Under the pieces are notes generated by a model. That model made no database searches, was not told where the DNA came from, and worked only from the letters and a program-made list of their open reading frames with translations. 6,720 nt of DNA from a virus (lineage: Duplodnaviria; Heunggongvirae; Uroviricota; Caudoviricetes). A program made the translations under genes and the position numbers. The stretch is taken from the IMG/VR virus record IMGVR_UViG_3300029643_000047; one strand, given 5' to 3'. Shown here one piece after another: positions 157 to 6,720 of the stretch (positions are counted from its first letter, which is position 1; the number at the start of each line of letters is the position of its first letter).

Positions 157-205
157 CTGCGGATGCCTGAGACAGACAACCTCAAGCACCCGCAGCAATT
201 TTACT
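157..205 (+). terminator. Candidate intrinsic terminator (plus orientation): imperfect 15-bp stem with 9-nt loop followed by a T-rich tract
   Basis: Seen in sequence: left arm 157-171 CTGCGGATGCCTGAG, loop 172-180, right arm 181-195 CTCAAGCACCCGCAG. By hand, 13 of 15 positions pair. The stem is followed by CAATTTTACTT, a short and interrupted U-tract. On the minus strand the hairpin is followed by an A-rich stretch, so it would only terminate plus-strand transcripts entering from the left edge. Confidence 0.3.
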
Positions 206-258
206 TAACTCCCGCTACCTCGCCAATATGAAATCAATAAGAAAGGTGCTCCATAAAA

Positions 259-945
259 TCACTCCTTCTCTTCTTTATCGTAGTGGAGTTGACCAATTTT
301 GATAAGAGGGCGTCCCTGAGATTTGCGGTGTAGATTGGTATCGCGCAGAGAATACACACAGCCACAATATTCCTGCTGATAGAATTTTTCGCGCTTGCTG
401 ATTTCAATCATGCGGGACGAGCCGCCCTGCTTGCGCCAGTTATAATCCCAGTACACCATGCCCGGATAATGCGCGACGGCTCGCCGCCCACAGTCGTTAA
501 CCTGCTGCATATTTTTCCAGCGTGAAATGCCCAGTGAACTGCTGATCACACTGAAACCATTTTCAGCAGCGTACAGCGCTGTCCGCTCAAAACGCATGTC
601 AAAACACATGGTACAACGGATCCCCCTCTCGGGCTCCCATTCCATTCCTTTGGCACGTTCAAACCAGTTGTCGGTGTCGTAATCAGCATCGATAAACGGC
701 ACGCCGTGTTGTTCAGCAAAGCGAATATTTTCATCCTTACGAATTAAATACTCTTTCTGAGGATGAATGTTCGGGTTGTAGAAAAAGATGGTATAGTCGA
801 TTCTCGAGGCCTGAAGTGCCTCCATCACTTCACCGGAACATGGAGCACAGCAAGAGTGCAGTAGTAGTTTGTTTGCCCCGTTTGGGAGCTCCAATTTAGG
901 CCGTTTGAAATCAGCAATAGTCATAAATATTTTTATTGGGGTCAT
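259..945 (-). CDS. queH: QueH-family (DUF208) epoxyqueuosine reductase homolog, predicted Fe-S enzyme of tRNA queuosine biosynthesis
   Basis: 228-aa ORF. The translation carries [11 protein letters not shown] near the N-terminus and EYCGCVYS near the C-terminus, the cysteine signature I associate with QueH/DUF208. Stop TGA at 261..259. Start ATG at 945..943 has no clear Shine-Dalgarno; an alternative ATG at 924..922 also lacks one, so the start is uncertain. Family assignment is from motif recognition, not a search. Confidence 0.75.
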
Positions 946-1098
946 GAAAATAGCACAGAGTGTAGCATCAGAGCAGGTCTATCGGGAATATATGTCTAAA
1001 TCTGGTAATATCTGGTTTTGACGCAAAGCGGACAACCACGCTGGCTCTACCCTGCGCCATGAAAATGTCAATTCACATCTGAACTAATGCTCTTTAAT

Positions 1099-1524
1099 CT
1101 AGTAACGTCTAAAATACCTAACATTTCCTTGATAAAATGCCAGTACACGCTGCATAGCTTCGCTCTTCCGGCACTCGCGACAGATTATATTCAGGCGCCT
1201 GTCGTAGCGGCGTATTTCGCCGTCTGGTAACGACCAGATAAGGTCCGGATCAACCACTGCAGGTTTCTTCACCTTTGCCCTTGAGAGTTTTTTGCGAGCA
1301 TTTTGCCAGTCCTTACGCGCCTGTTCAGACGGGAATAACCCGTAACCAGAGTTGTATACATCGCCACTGGCAACCAGCTCTCTGGCGAGAACACTCATCA
1401 GATATCTTGTCGCACCTGTCCTGGCTTCCAGTTGCCGCAACGTCTCGCGACCGCTCAGACGTACAAGTTCAACAACCTGCCCTTTAATTTTTTCCCGCTC
1501 TTCTTGTGTAAATACTTTTGCCAT
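1099..1524 (-). CDS. Hypothetical phage protein, 141 aa, basic, last gene of the minus-strand early operon
   Basis: Open frame 1099..1539 in the ORF track. I place the start at ATG 1524..1522 because GGAGG sits 5 nt upstream on the minus strand; the track's longer start is a TTG. Stop TAG at 1101..1099. It begins 15 nt after the stop of the upstream gene (1540). I do not recognise the family. Confidence 0.7.
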   Translation of the reverse strand: MAKVFTQEEREKIKGQVVELVRLSGRETLRQLEARTGATRYLMSVLARELVASGDVYNSGYGLFPSEQARKDWQNARKKLSRAKVKKPAVVDPDLIWSLPDGEIRRYDRRLNIICRECRKSEAMQRVLAFYQGNVRYFRRY

Positions 1525-1539
1525 AAGCGCCTCCGGCAA

Positions 1540-2310
1540 TCACTTTTCCGATACAACACGGCGGGAAGAATCAGTAATCTGTCGAACAATATCCCGGTGC
1601 TTGTTCAGCTCCCGCAGCGCGGCGCAGACTCGCTCCCACTTCTGAACATCACTTTTCGCCCTGCGCAGCGCCAGGTTTGCCCTGCGAAGGGACGGAAAAA
1701 TCAGCTCATCTGCTTGCGTTTCGGTAAACGATGGCAACGGCTGCACAATGTCCGCCACAGTTTCTGTTTTAATTTCTTCCTGTGTTGCGGCTTCCCGGAC
1801 TGGTAACGCAGCACCTGCTGGCTGAGGAAAGGCCTTACCATCACTTTCCGTTACCAGCGCGGCTTTCGGCTCTGCTGGTAAATTATCGCCCGGCATGCAG
1901 TAACGAAATTTACCGTTCTGATTAACGCGTGCCAGCCGCCCCGTTGCGGTTACCACCGCCAGCGTGGAAGCAACCTTGCGAGTACTGACACCGAACTTAC
2001 CCGCCAGTTCCTCACACGTTTTAGCCCCATCCTGACCGATAAACTCAATCATCATGTCTGCGGTAACTTTTTGTTCGACCTCCCCGGTCAGCATATCCTG
2101 TGCTTCAGATTTTACTGGCCGCTCTTCGGTTACCCGGGATTCACCTTCGCCAGCCAGAAACCAGGTGTGACCAGTTTTATCAACGACGCCTTTTCTTTTG
2201 AGTTCCCACAGCTCGTTGACAGCCTCTTCACGACTGATTCCAAGGCGAGCTGCCACCACATGTGAAGAGGCTTTTTTCAGTGCTTTCAGTGCGTCAGATA
2301 CGGTTTCCAT
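1540..2310 (-). CDS. Hypothetical phage protein, 256 aa, with two helix-turn-helix-like segments; sits where ydaW lies in K-12 Rac
   Basis: Start ATG 2310..2308 preceded by GGAGG with an 8-nt spacer; stop TGA 1542..1540. Two segments look like winged-helix DNA-binding units (VVAARLGISREEAVNELWELKRKGVV and CEELAGKFGVSTRKVASTLAVVTATGRLARV). The ydaW correspondence is from position only. Confidence 0.75.
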   Translation of the reverse strand: METVSDALKALKKASSHVVAARLGISREEAVNELWELKRKGVVDKTGHTWFLAGEGESRVTEERPVKSEAQDMLTGEVEQKVTADMMIEFIGQDGAKTCEELAGKFGVSTRKVASTLAVVTATGRLARVNQNGKFRYCMPGDNLPAEPKAALVTESDGKAFPQPAGAALPVREAATQEEIKTETVADIVQPLPSFTETQADELIFPSLRRANLALRRAKSDVQKWERVCAALRELNKHRDIVRQITDSSRRVVSEK

Positions 2311-2331
2311 TAAAATTTCCTCCGGACAAAA

Positions 2332-3078
2332 TTACTTCACAACCCTCATATTGCTGACATTTGGACGCCAGCTATCCCAGTTAAACGTCACCCATCGACC
2401 ACCGTTCATGGTCATGCGGTCCATAATCCTCTCACCAAGAAGCGTACTCATTGCGGCATGATTCAGGTTTGTTAACATCCCGACACTGCACAGTGATGCT
2501 GTCCGGCGATCAATTATCTGGTGCAATACCACCTGCTCGTTTTTCGTCTCCCGCTGAACGCCTATTTCATCCAGGACCAGCAAATCAACCCCGCAAAGCT
2601 CCTGTAAAAATTTTTCCCCGGATTTGCCGTTGTCGTAGCTGTCATGCAACACGCTCATGACGTCAGACACGGTGACGATAATCACGCTGCGCCCCTTCAC
2701 CATCAGCCGGTTGCCCATCGCCGCTGCAAGGTGATTTTTCCCGGTGCCGGTTTTACCGCTGAACACAAAATTCGTGCACCCGGTCATCAGTTCGTCAGCT
2801 ATGGATTTGGCCTGGCTCAGCGCGTATTTTTGCCCGTCGTTCTGCACCTGATAATTTGCAAACGAGCATTTGCTGTGCAGAGGCTGGATGCCCGAACGAT
2901 TCAGGATTTTTTCCACCCGCAACTGGCGATTCTGGCGGTTAATCTCCTCGCTGCGTTTTCGTCCTTCAGCAAGTTGCCATTCCCGCCACTCCTCCACCGT
3001 CCGGTACGGTGGAACCGACCCCTGTGGTGCAAGTCTGCGAATACGTTCAAGAACCCCAACTGCCGCAATGTTTTTCAT
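2332..3078 (-). CDS. ydaV: DnaC/IstB-like AAA+ helicase loader (phage replication protein, YdaV-like)
   Basis: 248-aa ORF. Walker A-like FSGKTGTGKNHLAAA and Walker B LLVLDEIG are visible in the translation. Start ATG 3078..3076 with GGGGGTGA upstream; only 6 nt separate it from the stop of the upstream O-like gene (3087..3085). Length and position match my recollection of YdaV in K-12 Rac. Confidence 0.88.
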   Translation of the reverse strand: MKNIAAVGVLERIRRLAPQGSVPPYRTVEEWREWQLAEGRKRSEEINRQNRQLRVEKILNRSGIQPLHSKCSFANYQVQNDGQKYALSQAKSIADELMTGCTNFVFSGKTGTGKNHLAAAMGNRLMVKGRSVIIVTVSDVMSVLHDSYDNGKSGEKFLQELCGVDLLVLDEIGVQRETKNEQVVLHQIIDRRTASLCSVGMLTNLNHAAMSTLLGERIMDRMTMNGGRWVTFNWDSWRPNVSNMRVVK

Positions 3079-3084
3079 GACACG

Positions 3085-3942
3085 TCACCCCCTGAATCCC
3101 GGCGGTATTTCAGTGTCCGGTTCAGAAATGTGATTCACGCAACGCTGCGCAGGCGAACGCCCCAGGCGGATAACCAGTTCATCCCATTTTTCCCGGAGTT
3201 TTGCCGGACTCATGATGTTTTTTACCCAGAACGAATCCCGCTGGAGACGCCCAAACATTTCACAAATTTGTCTGTGAGTTCTGCCATCCAGCATCCGCAT
3301 TGTGCGAACGTCATTGGCCCATGCTGTCCAGTTGGGTTCTTTCGGTCTAGTGATCTCGCCATCATAGCTGGCCGCCTGCTCGTAAAGACTCACGATTCGT
3401 CCCCAGATCCACTGTGCGCACACCAAATCTTCCTGACTTCCCCACTGGCGTTTTTTCGCACTGAACACAACCGCGTCAGGGTGTCGGGTTAAAAAATCCT
3501 GTTCAGCCGTCTGCGGGTCCGGTTGCGAAGCGTCCGGACAAGAAGATCTTTTATCTGACGGATCAGGTTTTAATACTGACGGATCGGGGTCAATCATCGC
3601 CCCCCTAATCGGCAGTTTTTTATCAACAGTTGATCCATCAAAATTTGACGGGTCAACCGTTGAGGGGTCATTTTTTGCCGGGCTAATTTTTCTTTTCGGT
3701 TTATATGACTCACGCGCCGCCGCCGCAGCTGCTTCGAGTTTTTCCACATTAAGCCGATAGATATTGCTTACATTACGCCCACCGACCTTACGCTCTTCCT
3801 TCGTCAGCCAGCCCTCTTTCGCCAGTTCTGCAATAGCCGATTTCACTGTGGATTCACTTCTTGCACCGATCTGACGCCGGATAGTTTCAATGGCAGGCCA
3901 TGACACGCCCTCGTCATTGCTGTAGTCTGCAAGACGGGCCAT
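3085..3942 (-). CDS. ydaU: Phage replication initiation protein (lambda O-like, N-terminal HTH), YdaU-like
   Basis: Open frame 3085..4032. Candidate starts are GTG 4032 (no SD), ATG 4017 (GGGGG 4 nt upstream), ATG 3966 (no SD) and ATG 3942 (GGTGG 5 nt upstream). I chose 3942, which gives 285 aa and matches the length I recall for YdaU; the true start could be 4017. HTH-like segment VSWPAIETIRRQIGARSESTVKSAIAELAKEGWL. Stop TGA 3087..3085. Confidence 0.8.
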   Translation of the reverse strand: MARLADYSNDEGVSWPAIETIRRQIGARSESTVKSAIAELAKEGWLTKEERKVGGRNVSNIYRLNVEKLEAAAAAARESYKPKRKISPAKNDPSTVDPSNFDGSTVDKKLPIRGAMIDPDPSVLKPDPSDKRSSCPDASQPDPQTAEQDFLTRHPDAVVFSAKKRQWGSQEDLVCAQWIWGRIVSLYEQAASYDGEITRPKEPNWTAWANDVRTMRMLDGRTHRQICEMFGRLQRDSFWVKNIMSPAKLREKWDELVIRLGRSPAQRCVNHISEPDTEIPPGFRG

Positions 3943-4039
3943 AACCGCCACCCTGGATAAGATCATGCCGGTGAAGGCGCACCCTTCCCAGACAAGACCA
4001 TGAAGCTTGCTGCTCATAAAACCCCCGAACACCGTGCTT

Positions 4040-4465
4040 TTAGTGCATCACCACAGCATTCCCTGCCGGGCCGCCGCGATTCATCTGGTCATACAAAACA
4101 ACCGCTGACGCAACAAAATCATCGACATCCTTCACCAGCCGATCCCTCCGTTCGACGATCTCACGGTAATATTCAGAACTGTGGCTGCGCATACGGGCCA
4201 CCAGCAAAGGCGGCATCGCCTTTTCGATCGCCGGTAACAGAGCCTGCATTTTTTCAACAGCATCAGGGGTGTCTTTATCCAGCCAACGGAAAATTTTCTG
4301 GGTATTACGGGCCAGGGCTTCCGGATGGCTGTCGTCGTACAGTTCAGGGAACGTCATCCCCAGTTCGAAATAAGTCCGGGCTATTTCAGCTGCAGGAACT
4401 TTCTCACCATCAGGGTATGCCCAGGCATTCATCGCCATGCGGATGTGCTCATGTTTGATTTTCAT
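4040..4465 (-). CDS. ydaT: YdaT (Rac prophage cII-like protein; toxic when derepressed)
   Basis: 141-aa ORF, start ATG 4465..4463, stop TAA 4042..4040. Its start overlaps the 3' end of ydaS by 17 nt. The translation (MKIKHEHIRMAMNAWAYPDGEK...) matches my recollection of YdaT, and the gene sits immediately after ydaS as in K-12 Rac. Confidence 0.85.
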   Translation of the reverse strand: MKIKHEHIRMAMNAWAYPDGEKVPAAEIARTYFELGMTFPELYDDSHPEALARNTQKIFRWLDKDTPDAVEKMQALLPAIEKAMPPLLVARMRSHSSEYYREIVERRDRLVKDVDDFVASAVVLYDQMNRGGPAGNAVVMH

Positions 4466-4772
4466 GAATCATTTGCCTCTTGATGCTTCGGGTATGATCG
4501 TTTTCGTCATTTGGTTGCTTCATCGACATATTCTGCGAATAACATGACGAGCGTCGTAAGTATGTCCAATCAACATCAGGACGAAGTTCTTCACACAGGA
4601 CACCACCTTTTGTTGCTCGTTCAATCGCAGGACATCTCTCAGCAGGTAACTGACGTACACCTTTGATCCATTGATTTACGCTTGGAGGAGATACACCTAA
4701 AAGCCTAGCCATTGCTGATTGCCCACCGACAACAGCACAAGCTCGTTTGAATGAATAGTTATCTTTTTTCAT
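4449..4772 (-). CDS. ydaS: YdaS (Cro-like HTH regulator of the Rac immunity region)
   Basis: Start ATG 4772..4770 with GGAG 8 nt upstream, giving 107 aa; the ORF track's longer form starts at a GTG at 4793 with no SD. HTH segment AMARLLGVSPPSVNQWIKGVRQLPAERC. Divergent from racR across a 124-bp operator region. Stop TGA 4451..4449. Confidence 0.85.
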   Translation of the reverse strand: MKKDNYSFKRACAVVGGQSAMARLLGVSPPSVNQWIKGVRQLPAERCPAIERATKGGVLCEELRPDVDWTYLRRSSCYSQNMSMKQPNDENDHTRSIKRQMIHENQT

Positions 4773-4799
4773 CGAATGAACTCCAAAAAACACGCAACA

Positions 4800-4829
4800 A
4801 TATTAGGCTTAGCCTAATGAAATTGTCAA
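4800..4829 (-). promoter_or_regulatory. pR-like sigma70 promoter for the ydaS-ydaT-replication operon
   Basis: On the minus strand: -35 TTGACA (plus 4829..4824), 18-nt spacer, -10 TAATAT (plus 4805..4800). The predicted transcript start is about 20 nt upstream of the ydaS ATG. The -10 overlaps operator site A and the -35 lies between sites A and B. Confidence 0.55.
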
Positions 4830-4868
4830 TAGGCTATGCCTAATACATCGAGAGTAGGGATTGCCTAA
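4802..4868. promoter_or_regulatory. Triad of operator-like inverted repeats (OR-like), consensus ATTAGGC-N3-GCCTAAT
   Basis: Site A 4802-4818 ATTAGGC TTA GCCTAAT has perfect 7-bp half-sites. Site B 4829-4844 ATAGGC TAT GCCTAAT and site C 4855-4868 TAGGG ATT GCCTAA are degenerate. Centre-to-centre spacing is about 26 and 25 bp. The sites lie between divergent racR and ydaS. Confidence 0.55.
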
Positions 4869-4896
4869 CGCGATGCGCATAGGAGACTATTAAGCA

Positions 4897-5373
4897 ATGC
4901 TTAGTGGTAAAGACTTAGGCCGAGCGATAGAGCAGGCCATTAACAAAAAAATTGCATCAGGAGCCGTCAAATCAAAGGCGGAAATCGCACGTCATTTCAA
5001 AGTCCAACCACCATCAATCCATGACTGGATTAAGAAAGGTTCGATAAGTAAAGACAAACTTCCAGAACTATGGCGTTTCTTTTCTGATGTGGTTGGTCCA
5101 GAGCATTGGGGGCTTAACGAATACCCCATACCAACCCCATCCACTTCAGATACAAAAAGTGAACTTTTAGACATAAACAGCCTTTATCAAGCCGCCTCTG
5201 ATGAAAAAAAAGCAATTGTGGCTTTCATCTTATCTGGAAATGCTACGGAGCCTAGTTGGGTTGATTATGACGTTCGCGCCTACATTGCCGCAATGGAAAT
5301 GAAGGTAGCTAACTATCTGAAAAATCAAGAATCAAAACGGAAAAGCCAGAACATCACCAAGACAGGAACTTAA
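4897..5373 (+). CDS. racR: RacR, prophage repressor (cI analog) with N-terminal HTH
   Basis: 158-aa ORF, start ATG 4897, stop TAA 5371-5373. The translation (MLSGKDLGRAIEQAINKKIASGAVKSKAEIARHFKVQPPSIHDWIKKGS...) matches my recollection of RacR. AGGAG lies 11 nt upstream of the ATG. The gene is divergent from ydaS and flanked on both sides by the same operator motif. Confidence 0.9.
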   Translation: MLSGKDLGRAIEQAINKKIASGAVKSKAEIARHFKVQPPSIHDWIKKGSISKDKLPELWRFFSDVVGPEHWGLNEYPIPTPSTSDTKSELLDINSLYQAASDEKKAIVAFILSGNATEPSWVDYDVRAYIAAMEMKVANYLKNQESKRKSQNITKTGT

Positions 5374-5447
5374 ACTTATATGGTCCGACGGGAAATTCCT
5401 AGTTCCCGTTAGTTAACTCCTACTACCTCTCCCACAAACCATCACCT

Positions 5448-5508
5448 ATTAGGTTGCGCCCAAATTATTAGGCATAGCCTATTGACAAGTAATTAGGCAT
5501 TTCCTATA
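5448..5508. promoter_or_regulatory. Second operator cluster (OL-like) downstream of racR with the same half-site motif
   Basis: Site D 5467-5483 ATTAGGC ATA GCCTATT is near perfect. Site E 5492-5508 ATTAGGC ATT TCCTATA has a degenerate right half. A weak third site at 5448-5465 has a good ATTAGG left half only. Sites D and E bracket and overlap the -35 and -10 of the promoter at 5482-5510. Confidence 0.5.
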
Positions 5509-5510
5509 GT
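5482..5510 (+). promoter_or_regulatory. pL-like sigma70 promoter with consensus -35 and near-consensus -10
   Basis: TTGACA at 5482-5487, exactly 17 nt spacer, TATAGT at 5505-5510. It fires away from racR into the downstream small ORFs. The 18-bp block GGCATAGCCTATTGACAA (5471-5488) is repeated in inverted orientation at 4840..4823 inside the pR-like promoter. Confidence 0.6.
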
Positions 5511-5691
5511 TTTCCCATACCAACCCATCCCGTCCCACACAATACAGGGCAATACCTCGAGTTACCAGGCAGTGGTCAGGGGTTAAGTAGCCAGCCCGAG
5601 GCGTAAGAACATGACGGCAGGGTTCAACTTTAATAACTATGCAGCAGGTTTTTGTTCCGCTACCCCGGCGTTAAGGGGAAATGAGGTCAGC

Positions 5692-5844
5692 ATGGATACT
5701 ATCGAGCTTGGCAACAACGAATCTCTGGTATGCGGCGTGTTTCCCAACCAGGACGGCACGTTTACCGCGATGACATATACCAGAAGCAAAACGTTTAAAA
5801 CTGAAGCTGGCGCGCGTCGCTGGTTAACCAGAAACACTGACTGA
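5692..5844 (+). CDS. Small early-operon protein, 50 aa (possibly YdaF-like)
   Basis: ATG 5692 with GAGG 5 nt upstream; stop TGA 5842-5844. The ORF track's longer form (from 5611) has no Shine-Dalgarno. The length is close to what I recall for YdaF of K-12 Rac, but that identification is from memory only. It lies about 180 nt downstream of the pL-like promoter. Confidence 0.55.
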   Translation: MDTIELGNNESLVCGVFPNQDGTFTAMTYTRSKTFKTEAGARRWLTRNTD

Positions 5845-5855
5845 TGAGGTTGACG

Positions 5856-6176
5856 ATGGAATTTAAAGATTTACCAGTACCATTCCAGGAAATGGCATCG
5901 AATGTGGTTCGCTCTCAACTGGCGACTCTTGACCTGAGTACCGTAGAAAAAGAAACCATCGACAATATATCCGGTAACGTACGCCGAGCCTTTATCGGGC
6001 TGTACGAAGAGAAGCAGCTCTCTGATAACCAGGATTTACATGAAAAATACTTCCTGGATCTAATGGACATCATTGATAAGGGGTTTGGCTTGTTAATGAA
6101 AAAGAAAGGGATTCGAATAGAACCCCTTGAAAATTACTTTGCAACAAAAAGCATTAATTCTTTTGATTCAAAATAA
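5856..6176 (+). CDS. Hypothetical small acidic protein, 106 aa
   Basis: ATG 5856 with GAGG 6 nt upstream. An alternative ATG at 5844 overlaps the upstream stop (TGATG) but lacks an SD. Stop TAA 6174-6176. The C-terminal half lies in AT-rich DNA. No recognisable motif. Confidence 0.6.
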   Translation: MEFKDLPVPFQEMASNVVRSQLATLDLSTVEKETIDNISGNVRRAFIGLYEEKQLSDNQDLHEKYFLDLMDIIDKGFGLLMKKKGIRIEPLENYFATKSINSFDSK

Positions 6177-6429
6177 GAGAATTAATTACAGACTTAACAT
6201 GCTCTTTCTCATGATTGAAGCTCTCATGATTGAAAGTGCCGGGTTGAAGCGAGTCGATATAATCAACAAGACTCTGTCGTACGACTTCATTTTTATCCAT
6301 AACAGATGCAAGAAATGAAATTGCTAAAAGAGTTATATCACTACGCGCCGCAGCATGTTGCAATGCTTTATCAAAATTATTAATCTGGCGTATCAGGGAG
6401 TTAATGATTTCATCATTTTCAGTCGACAT
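6154..6429 (-). CDS. Hypothetical small protein, 91 aa, convergent with the upstream plus-strand ORF
   Basis: ATG 6429..6427 preceded on the minus strand by AGGAGGG with a 4-nt spacer; stop TAA 6156..6154. The frame stays open upstream to the window edge, but that 97-codon extension is Arg/Pro/Thr-rich, GC-rich and non-protein-like, so I call the internal start. The region is AT-rich (about 36% GC by hand count over 6181-6420). Confidence 0.55.
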   Translation of the reverse strand: MSTENDEIINSLIRQINNFDKALQHAAARSDITLLAISFLASVMDKNEVVRQSLVDYIDSLQPGTFNHESFNHEKEHVKSVINSLILNQKN

Positions 6430-6720
6430 TTCACCCTCCTGAGGGTTGGTGATTAAGGAGTTCTCCACGGGTGAGGTGGAGTGCGTGCGCCGGACACGGG
6501 TGAGCATCCGGCACTGACAGTTTACTGAAAGGATATTTCCCTGAAAAGTCAGACCATAACGCGAAAGCGCCCGGCGAGGTAGCTGGTTCATAGATAGCCT
6601 GTCGTTAAATTTTCGTCGACCGTGCGTTTCCGGTTGTGGCAATCCGCGAAATGGCGCGGCGGTAAGTATGGCGGGGTTATTCCTTCCCCGTTGAGGACAC
6701 CGAGTTGTCAGGTTGACCAT

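Follow-up and report, generated by a model that had tools for sequence, protein, structure and literature searches.

Two enzymes have been described for the last step of queuosine (Q) synthesis, in which epoxyqueuosine (oQ) is reduced to Q in tRNA. QueG is a cobalamin/[4Fe-4S] enzyme, and cobamide-dependent oQ reduction in E. coli and Salmonella was described by Frey et al. in 1988 (PMC5175355). QueH is a non-orthologous replacement of QueG that is independent of cobalamin or other cobamides (PMC5372724, PMC6461909, PMC6063277). Both enzymes coexist in S. aureus, where the availability of cofactors is held to account for their expression patterns (PMC13443448). Here we describe a queH gene in a stretch of 6,720 nucleotides of viral DNA (Duplodnaviria; Heunggongvirae; Uroviricota; Caudoviricetes; IMG/VR record IMGVR_UViG_3300029643_000047), referred to below, at its whole length, as the window. 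The reading that we favour, with a probability of roughly 0.7, is that queH is a self-contained cargo gene that would provide cobalamin (B12)-independent conversion of oQ to Q in lysogens. The family, the reaction and the name of the protein are already in databases, and it is the phage-borne setting that appears to be new.

The queH open reading frame (ORF) can be read in two forms:

259-945, minus strand: queH ORF in its longest form, uninterrupted, 228 amino acids, with an in-frame ATG at 945
259-924, minus strand: likely queH coding sequence, 221 amino acids from the conserved ATG at 924

The shorter form is most likely the coding sequence, because ATG 924 is invariant across prophage and chromosomal homologs and is also the RefSeq start, whereas the upstream ATG at 945 is not conserved, being replaced by ATT in a divergent allele (L020). 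The first-pass annotation of this DNA had given the gene the span 259-945; the ORF is indeed there and intact, with its start probably at 924 rather than 945. That this ORF is a real and intact member of the QueH family (PF02677) is confirmed. Its 228-amino acid form has QueH as its sole Pfam match (E = 3.4e-65, 219.8 bits where the gathering score is 23.5), in an alignment whose residues 27-201 cover positions 1-174 of the 175 in the profile, and the only PDB sequences that it matches are those of T. maritima QueH (7LC5 and its mutants, E = 2.8e-22, residues 27-203), the crystallised protein being about 30% identical. An AlphaFold2 model based on 30 homologs (mean predicted local distance difference test score 74.3, predicted template modelling (TM) score 0.76) was compared with the PDB using Foldseek. 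The top five matches were all T. maritima QueH entries (probability 1.00, target-normalised TM scores of 0.80-0.81, root mean square deviations of 3.1-3.9 Å), and the runners-up TtuA, TilS and LarE, which are enzymes of the PP-loop/adenine-nucleotide alpha-hydrolase type, had TM scores of 0.46 or less. The fold predicted by the model is that of the solved QueH structures, with an adenine-nucleotide alpha-hydrolase-like core.

The ORF carries the cysteine signatures HSCCAPC (C32, C33, C36), RCTMC (C111, C114) and CGC (C194, C196). The 221-amino acid form was searched against a library of representatives at 50% identity, which returned 4726 relatives at E<=1e-3, and conservation was assessed after aligning 62 representatives of nearly full length (38-73% identity) with T. 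maritima QueH. The seven cysteine columns hold Cys in 60, 61, 58, 62, 62, 54 and 56 of the 62 representatives, all of these have Arg at position 110 and 61 have Lys at position 144, both residues (R110 and K144) being present in the window protein. C32, C33, C111, C114, C194 and C196 align with T. maritima C9, C10, C87, C90, C169 and C171, which Li et al. (2021) reportedly proposed as ligands of the [4Fe-4S] cluster and of the adjacent iron. The remaining cysteine, C36 of CCAPC, stands at the position of T. maritima Asp13 (CCAPD); because 58 of the 62 representatives carry Cys in this column, the third Cys of CCxPC is the rule in this family and the T. maritima residue is the exception. The identification of a QueH homolog with CCxPC and CGC signatures, made in the first-pass annotation, is thus upheld by the Pfam, PDB and Foldseek matches and by the alignment of the 62 representatives. 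We consider the enzymatic identity of the protein as QueH very probable and infer that it would be catalytically active in E. coli. Zallot et al. (2017) reportedly regained Q in an E. coli queG mutant by supplying duf208 genes of several bacteria, and are said to have noted that A. baylyi carries both QueG and QueH.

In public records, at least 1000 contigs already encode the exact 221-amino acid protein, under the name 'MULTISPECIES: epoxyqueuosine reductase QueH [Enterobacteriaceae]'. In 5426 complete E. coli genomes, queH DNA (90-100% identity) is found in 995 (about 18%), at 1014 chromosomal places and three places on plasmids, and all 30 of the places sampled are annotated 'epoxyqueuosine reductase QueH'. 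Full-length copies number 985 and, judging from a spread sample of 30 that was inspected, nearly all are intact, named QueH by RefSeq and not pseudogenes; a truncated queH does exist (H80/L021) and is rare in the sample. Parts of the early region of the window match 5004 of the 5426 genomes and queH only 995, so its presence is variable, and the slot that it occupies, after a DUF977 gene, is constant. The gene for QueG is found in all 5426 genomes, in agreement with the earlier statement that QueG is the usual enzyme of E. coli for this step.

At least 191 viral contigs in IMG/VR encode a QueH relative, and the isolated, complete and plaque-forming lambda-like Escherichia phage HannyBb (45 kb) encodes a QueH with 94.7% amino acid identity in the same slot. 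The HannyBb protein is annotated 'hypothetical protein' and the matching PHROG 3217 is still of 'unknown function'; both can be named QueH. Two other sets of apparent phage carriers were set aside. The sequences labelled 'Acinetobacter phage MD-2021a' (CAKLQH020000001.1 and CAKLQF020000001.1; 328-379 kb) have a queH that is 78.5% identical and flanked by soxR, cynX, tadA and LysR-type genes, and look like mislabelled bacterial chromosome, and the 'Bacteriophage sp.' matches are short unannotated gut contigs with 31-51% identity that are not credible as phage carriers. The searchable literature yielded no mention of a phage- or prophage-borne QueH; the matches there were author names, reference lists and unrelated DUF208x false positives.

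The QueH protein is maintained by purifying selection while resident in prophages. This is seen in pairwise comparisons of six prophage alleles (Nei-Gojobori method), in which the ratio of nonsynonymous to synonymous divergence (dN/dS) is 0.05-0.09, with dS of up to 0.44 and dN of 0.025 or less. The same figures bear on the possibility that queH is a neutral hitch-hiker, picked up from a chromosome, of no function to phage or lysogen and persisting through the recent spread of prophages. Its redundancy with queG in every genome, its occasional truncation and its absence from 82% of complete genomes are what one would expect of such a gene, but values of dS of 0.27-0.44 for dN of only 0.015-0.025 among alleles are unexpected without selection on the protein, and nearly all of the full-length copies are intact, so that we consider neutral persistence very unlikely.

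The closest relatives of the prophage gene include chromosomal genes. QueH proteins with 78-85% identity are encoded in non-phage contexts in Erwinia (between purL and glrK), Providencia (adjoining tmcA), Pantoea and Photorhabdus (standing alone in both). Closer relatives are found in Scandinavium (91%), Kluyvera (90%), a cluster of Citrobacter koseri, Klebsiella and E. albertii (89%) and Enterobacter (87-89%), and among the 80 best species-representative genomes only that of E. albertii (99%) shares phage neighbours with the window. As the QueH of Sphingomonas and Stenotrophomonas is still 75-78% identical, the family evolves slowly, and identity alone therefore does not date the capture. Prophage and chromosomal loci have only the coding region and a 9-nucleotide motif in common, the upstream leader of the prophage loci being absent from the chromosomal ones, and for this reason no single donor species can be named. 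The prophage gene would derive from a chromosomal gene akin to the queH of Enterobacteriaceae, captured along with this promoter-like element.

Three elements flanking the coding sequence are relevant to its expression:

959-967, minus strand: extended -10-like motif TGCTACACT, 35 nucleotides upstream of ATG 924, recognised by comparative alignment
946-1040, minus strand: upstream leader, about 95-115 nucleotides, which moves with queH between prophage backgrounds
157-195, minus strand: perfect 15-bp, G+C-rich hairpin (CTGCGGGTGCTTGAG / CTCAGGCATCCGCAG), about 65 nucleotides past the queH stop

The leader is common to the window, to the prophages of E. coli MS 85-1 (L001) and GN04592 (L003) and to the divergent phage HannyBb, with different sequences beyond it. 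Within it, TGCTACAC (TGCTACACT in most alleles) is kept in every prophage upstream variant, even where the flanks cannot be aligned, and the TGCTACACT motif occurs once in the window for an expectation of 0.02. In 10 species representatives, queH is preceded at -37 to -44 by a motif of the same extended -10 type, TGCTA[C/A/T]A[C/A/T]T; nine of these copies have non-phage surroundings (Scandinavium, Kluyvera, Enterobacter, Symbiopectobacterium, Acerihabitans and others) and one is the prophage copy of E. albertii. With a looser pattern sought over a wider interval, 12 of 79 species-representative loci match, compared with 0.005 expected per 75-nucleotide interval. The conservation of this motif suggests that queH was captured with its own native promoter, and we lean slightly towards autonomous expression of the gene from it in the lysogen. 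A riboswitch (for B12 or preQ1) or other structured leader upstream of queH was also considered and rejected, Rfam giving nothing in the whole window at E<=1 and the fold of the leader having a z-score of -0.8 relative to shuffled sequences. In four IMG/VR loci (L036, L042, L045 and L049) and 14 others, a short GC hairpin (CGCCCGAAAGGGCG) is found about 100 nucleotides upstream of queH, just before the conserved leader; DUF977 is sometimes absent or further off in the contigs with this variant.

On the downstream side, the hairpin at 157-195 is the minimum free energy fold of positions 120-262 on the minus strand (z-score of -2.5) and is common to L001 and, in part, to L003. It has A- or T-runs on both sides, such that in the sense direction it is followed by an A-run and not by a U-run, and a terminator scan called none after queH. 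It could be the end of the queH transcript or a stabiliser of its mRNA, or a terminator for the plus strand, and is not a canonical sense terminator.

The window spans the immunity and replication genes of a Rac-like lambdoid prophage. Its features besides queH are as follows:

4897-5373, plus strand: racR-type repressor gene
4449-4793, minus strand: YdaS/Cro-like gene
4040-4465, minus strand: YdaT/CII-like gene
3085-4032, minus strand: O-like initiator gene
2332-3078, minus strand: DnaC-like loader gene
1540-2310, minus strand: DUF1627 gene
1099-1539, minus strand: DUF977/Ren-like gene (Pfam DUF977, E = 9e-28; PHROG 142, 'Ren-like exclusion protein')
1-73: end of an IS5 element (terminal 73 bp or so), with the inverted-repeat end GGAAGGTGCGAATAAG on the minus strand

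The names 'toxin YdaS' and 'toxin YdaT' given by Pfam to the products of 4040-4793 look like legacy annotation, as these genes sit at the cro and cII positions and match PHROGs for a transcriptional repressor and a CII-like activator. Two further ORFs lie between a DUF1391 gene and the right edge of the window, both without a Pfam or PADLOC match. That on the plus strand (5844-6176) matches PHROG 6937, of unknown function, and that on the minus strand (6154-6720, 188 amino acids) touches the edge, so that its true start may lie beyond.

The position of queH in this region is well defined. It lies on the strand of the early operon, after the cro/cII-like, O-like, DnaC-like, DUF1627 and DUF977/Ren-like genes, the last of which is its conserved upstream neighbour and anchors it at the end of the replication module. 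Of the 75 best IMG/VR contigs with enough flank, 68 have DUF977 immediately before queH on the same strand, as do L001, L003, L019, L020, L021 and HannyBb. In relatives the order downstream of queH is hokD, DUF968, RusA and phage gene Q. The early-operon strand and the distal position among prophage accessory genes, equivalent to the nin region of lambdoid phages, had both been proposed from the window alone and are correct.

Downstream of queH, the neighbours vary (IS5, a KwaB-like gene, hokD or DUF1971). In the window, an IS5 has been inserted at a CTAG about 185 nucleotides past the queH stop, in place of the hokD or KwaB-like cargo of relatives; the stretch of IS5 end present in the window, which lies immediately 3' of an IS5 transposase gene, has 8209 copies in 1734 genomes. 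The closest relative of the window, the prophage of GN04592, is 99.7% identical over positions 163-6720 and adjoins ompW. Beyond queH it carries hokD, DUF968, RusA, gene Q, a methyltransferase gene, three tRNA genes, lysis genes and a terminase gene. In other genomes the same queH cassette is found in Qin-site prophages with a different gene Q and different lysis modules. The tRNA genes found downstream of gene Q in queH prophages are Ile-Arg-Arg in GN04592 (L003 7244-7493) and Thr-Gly in GPEC657 (L020 1231-1384); none belongs to the queuosine family (Asn, Asp, His, Tyr), and they have no evident link with queH.

Such a location also suits a role confined to the lytic cycle, in which queH would be expressed mainly as a distal gene of the early-right operon after induction and would keep new tRNA Q-modified during phage translation, with no role in the lysogen. 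The gene lies on the same strand as, and directly downstream of, the genes running from cro/cII-like to DUF977, no terminator was detected between DUF977 and queH, its position is fixed in mosaic prophages with different gene Q and lysis modules, and it is kept in the plaque-forming HannyBb. However, read-through expression would have no need of the promoter-like motif that the cassette still has in common with the chromosomal genes, tRNA turns over slowly compared with the short lytic cycle, and the host QueG is always present. Defective-looking carriers also keep queH intact, among them the window, with its adjacent IS5, and the Qin-site prophages L001 and L019, with their pseudogenes. A role of this kind seems unlikely to us, although it is compatible with a cargo gene acting in lysogens and does not exclude one.

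The variability beyond queH is relevant to another possibility, namely that queH takes part in genetic conflict, countering or joining a defence system or toxin that reads tRNA position 34, such as anticodon nucleases or colicin-type tRNases acting on Q-family tRNAs. The slot after queH appears, from its gene content, to behave as a hotspot for cargo and defence genes: in L001 a Kiwa KwaB-like domain protein and a 204-amino acid hypothetical protein are encoded between queH and hokD (10339-11978). Yet QueH itself matches no PADLOC family at E<=0.01, it has no conserved partner gene, its downstream neighbours differing from one prophage to another, and we know of no nuclease that tells oQ from Q. 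We regard this role as extremely improbable.

The first-pass annotation had also raised the possibility of a repurposed 7-deazaguanine chemistry, in which the phage QueH would act on a DNA derivative or on a free base or nucleoside, for genome modification or anti-restriction. This now seems highly improbable. In the known pathway oQ is made only on tRNA, by QueA, which weighs against other substrates, and the phage protein is almost indistinguishable from the housekeeping chromosomal QueH, with 78-91% identity, invariant active-site columns and dN/dS of about 0.05. It is true that phages are known to modify their DNA via the preQ0 pathway (PMC6884629) and that QueH binds nucleosides, having been crystallised with guanosine monophosphate and with queuosine according to PDB titles. 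Nevertheless, the annotations of three prophages and of the 45-kb HannyBb genome include no DpdA/TGT-like transglycosylase, FolE, QueD, QueE or QueC, the kind of neighbour for which a survey had been suggested. There is likewise no such gene among the ORFs of the window, as searched with Pfam and PHROGs, and at its left edge the window has the end of an IS5 rather than more pathway genes. In their survey of queuosine-pathway genes in viruses, Hutinet et al. found no QueA, QueG or QueH in the DNA-modifying viruses that they analysed (PMC6884629).

The family membership, predicted fold, intact catalytic cysteines, purifying selection, prophage position and redundancy with queG established in this analysis are the grounds on which we favour a cargo gene serving the lysogen. 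The ORF would encode a functional QueH, that is, an iron-sulfur, cobalamin-independent tRNA epoxyqueuosine(34) reductase converting oQ to Q at the wobble base of tRNA-Asn, tRNA-Asp, tRNA-His and tRNA-Tyr, and in Rac/Qin-type lambdoid prophages the gene would now form moron-like cargo where the replication module ends. QueG depends on cobalamin, and E. coli has no de novo synthesis of this cofactor; a lysogen with queH would therefore gain a second, B12-independent route for finishing queuosine. The data agree with tRNA as the target of the host 'manipulation' first suggested for this gene, and a B12-independent way of completing the host's normal modification describes its role better than that word does.

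Several observations weigh against this reading. No NCBIfam model is matched by the QueH protein, and its RefSeq name therefore did not come from an NCBIfam hidden Markov model in the library used. Codon 48 of the 228-amino acid ORF (802-804) encodes Arg in the window (QASRIDY), where Gly is found in 76 of 80 IMG/VR copies, in the other five prophage alleles and in each of the 29 close chromosomal homologs; we considered G48R as a deleterious allele and dropped this idea, since the column varies in the wider family (Gly in 32 of the 62 representatives) and T. maritima aligns an Arg there. No -35 element is found at the TGCTACACT motif, a generic sigma-70 scan found no minus-strand promoter between DUF977 and queH, the hexamer of the divergent allele L020 ends in A (TACACA), and no Shine-Dalgarno sequence is evident before either ATG (945 or 924). 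No experiments on this protein or on any prophage allele were found in the searchable literature. Finally, a benefit of B12 independence would presuppose that oQ and Q differ in decoding.

We infer some physiological benefit to the lysogen, and a real fitness benefit under B12 limitation is somewhat doubtful. More tentative still, and on balance unlikely, is the view of queH as a lysogenic-conversion gene that uncouples queuosine maturation from the supply of cobalamin. If true, the tRNA of lysogens would stay fully Q-modified through shortages of B12 in the gut, as well as after loss or repression of BtuB, the B12 receptor. As BtuB also serves as a receptor for E colicins and some phages, carriage of queH would in that case lower the cost of resistance through loss of the receptor, and a temperate phage that supplies its host with a tRNA-modification isozyme would then be documented for the first time. 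Temperate coliphages usually bring toxins, tRNAs or factors for exclusion or defence as auxiliary genes; a complete tRNA-modification enzyme is unusual among them, and QueH repeats a core function of the host while differing in the cofactor requirement. If QueH is active, about 18% of complete E. coli genomes, clinical lineages included, differ from K-12 in the B12-dependence of Q synthesis, a difference that would be relevant to work on Q-dependent translation, on metal and oxidative stress and on virulence, as well as to predictions of cobamide dependence that consider QueG only.

Among known systems, the genetic arrangement resembles that of lambdoid morons and nin-region cargo: queH, like these, is a single gene with a promoter-like element, placed between conserved modules, variably present and found beside other cargo (hokD, the KwaB-like gene). 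The comparison differs in that the promoter and transcript end of queH are deduced from sequence alone and that the gene is oriented with the early operon, so that read-through is equally possible. The 7-deazaguanine DNA-modification clusters of phages (DpdA with FolE, QueD, QueE and QueC, as in phage 9g) are likewise phage-borne genes of the queuosine/archaeosine pathway (PMC6884629), but they make preQ0-type bases that a transglycosylase inserts in DNA, whereas here a lone last-step tRNA enzyme is found without a transglycosylase. QueG of E. coli carries out the same reaction on the same tRNAs as QueH (PMC5372724, PMC5175355); it is not homologous to QueH, needs cobalamin and is a core gene (5426/5426 genomes, compared with 995 for queH). 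T. maritima QueH (7LC5, 7LC7 and 9DEU; DUF208, PF02677/IPR003828) has the same fold, size, single domain and CC...C/RCxxC/CGC set as the window protein, which differs in being encoded on a temperate phage rather than a chromosome and in having CCAPC for CCAPD. Closer in sequence are the chromosomal queH genes of Enterobacterales (Enterobacter, Kluyvera, Scandinavium, Citrobacter koseri, Erwinia, Providencia, Pantoea and Photorhabdus), with 78-91% amino acid identity, a core without insertions or deletions and, in the closest of them, the same extended -10-like motif about 40 nucleotides upstream. Those copies whose neighbours were inspected lie in ordinary chromosomal settings, whereas the queH of the window lies among phage replication genes and hok-type cargo.

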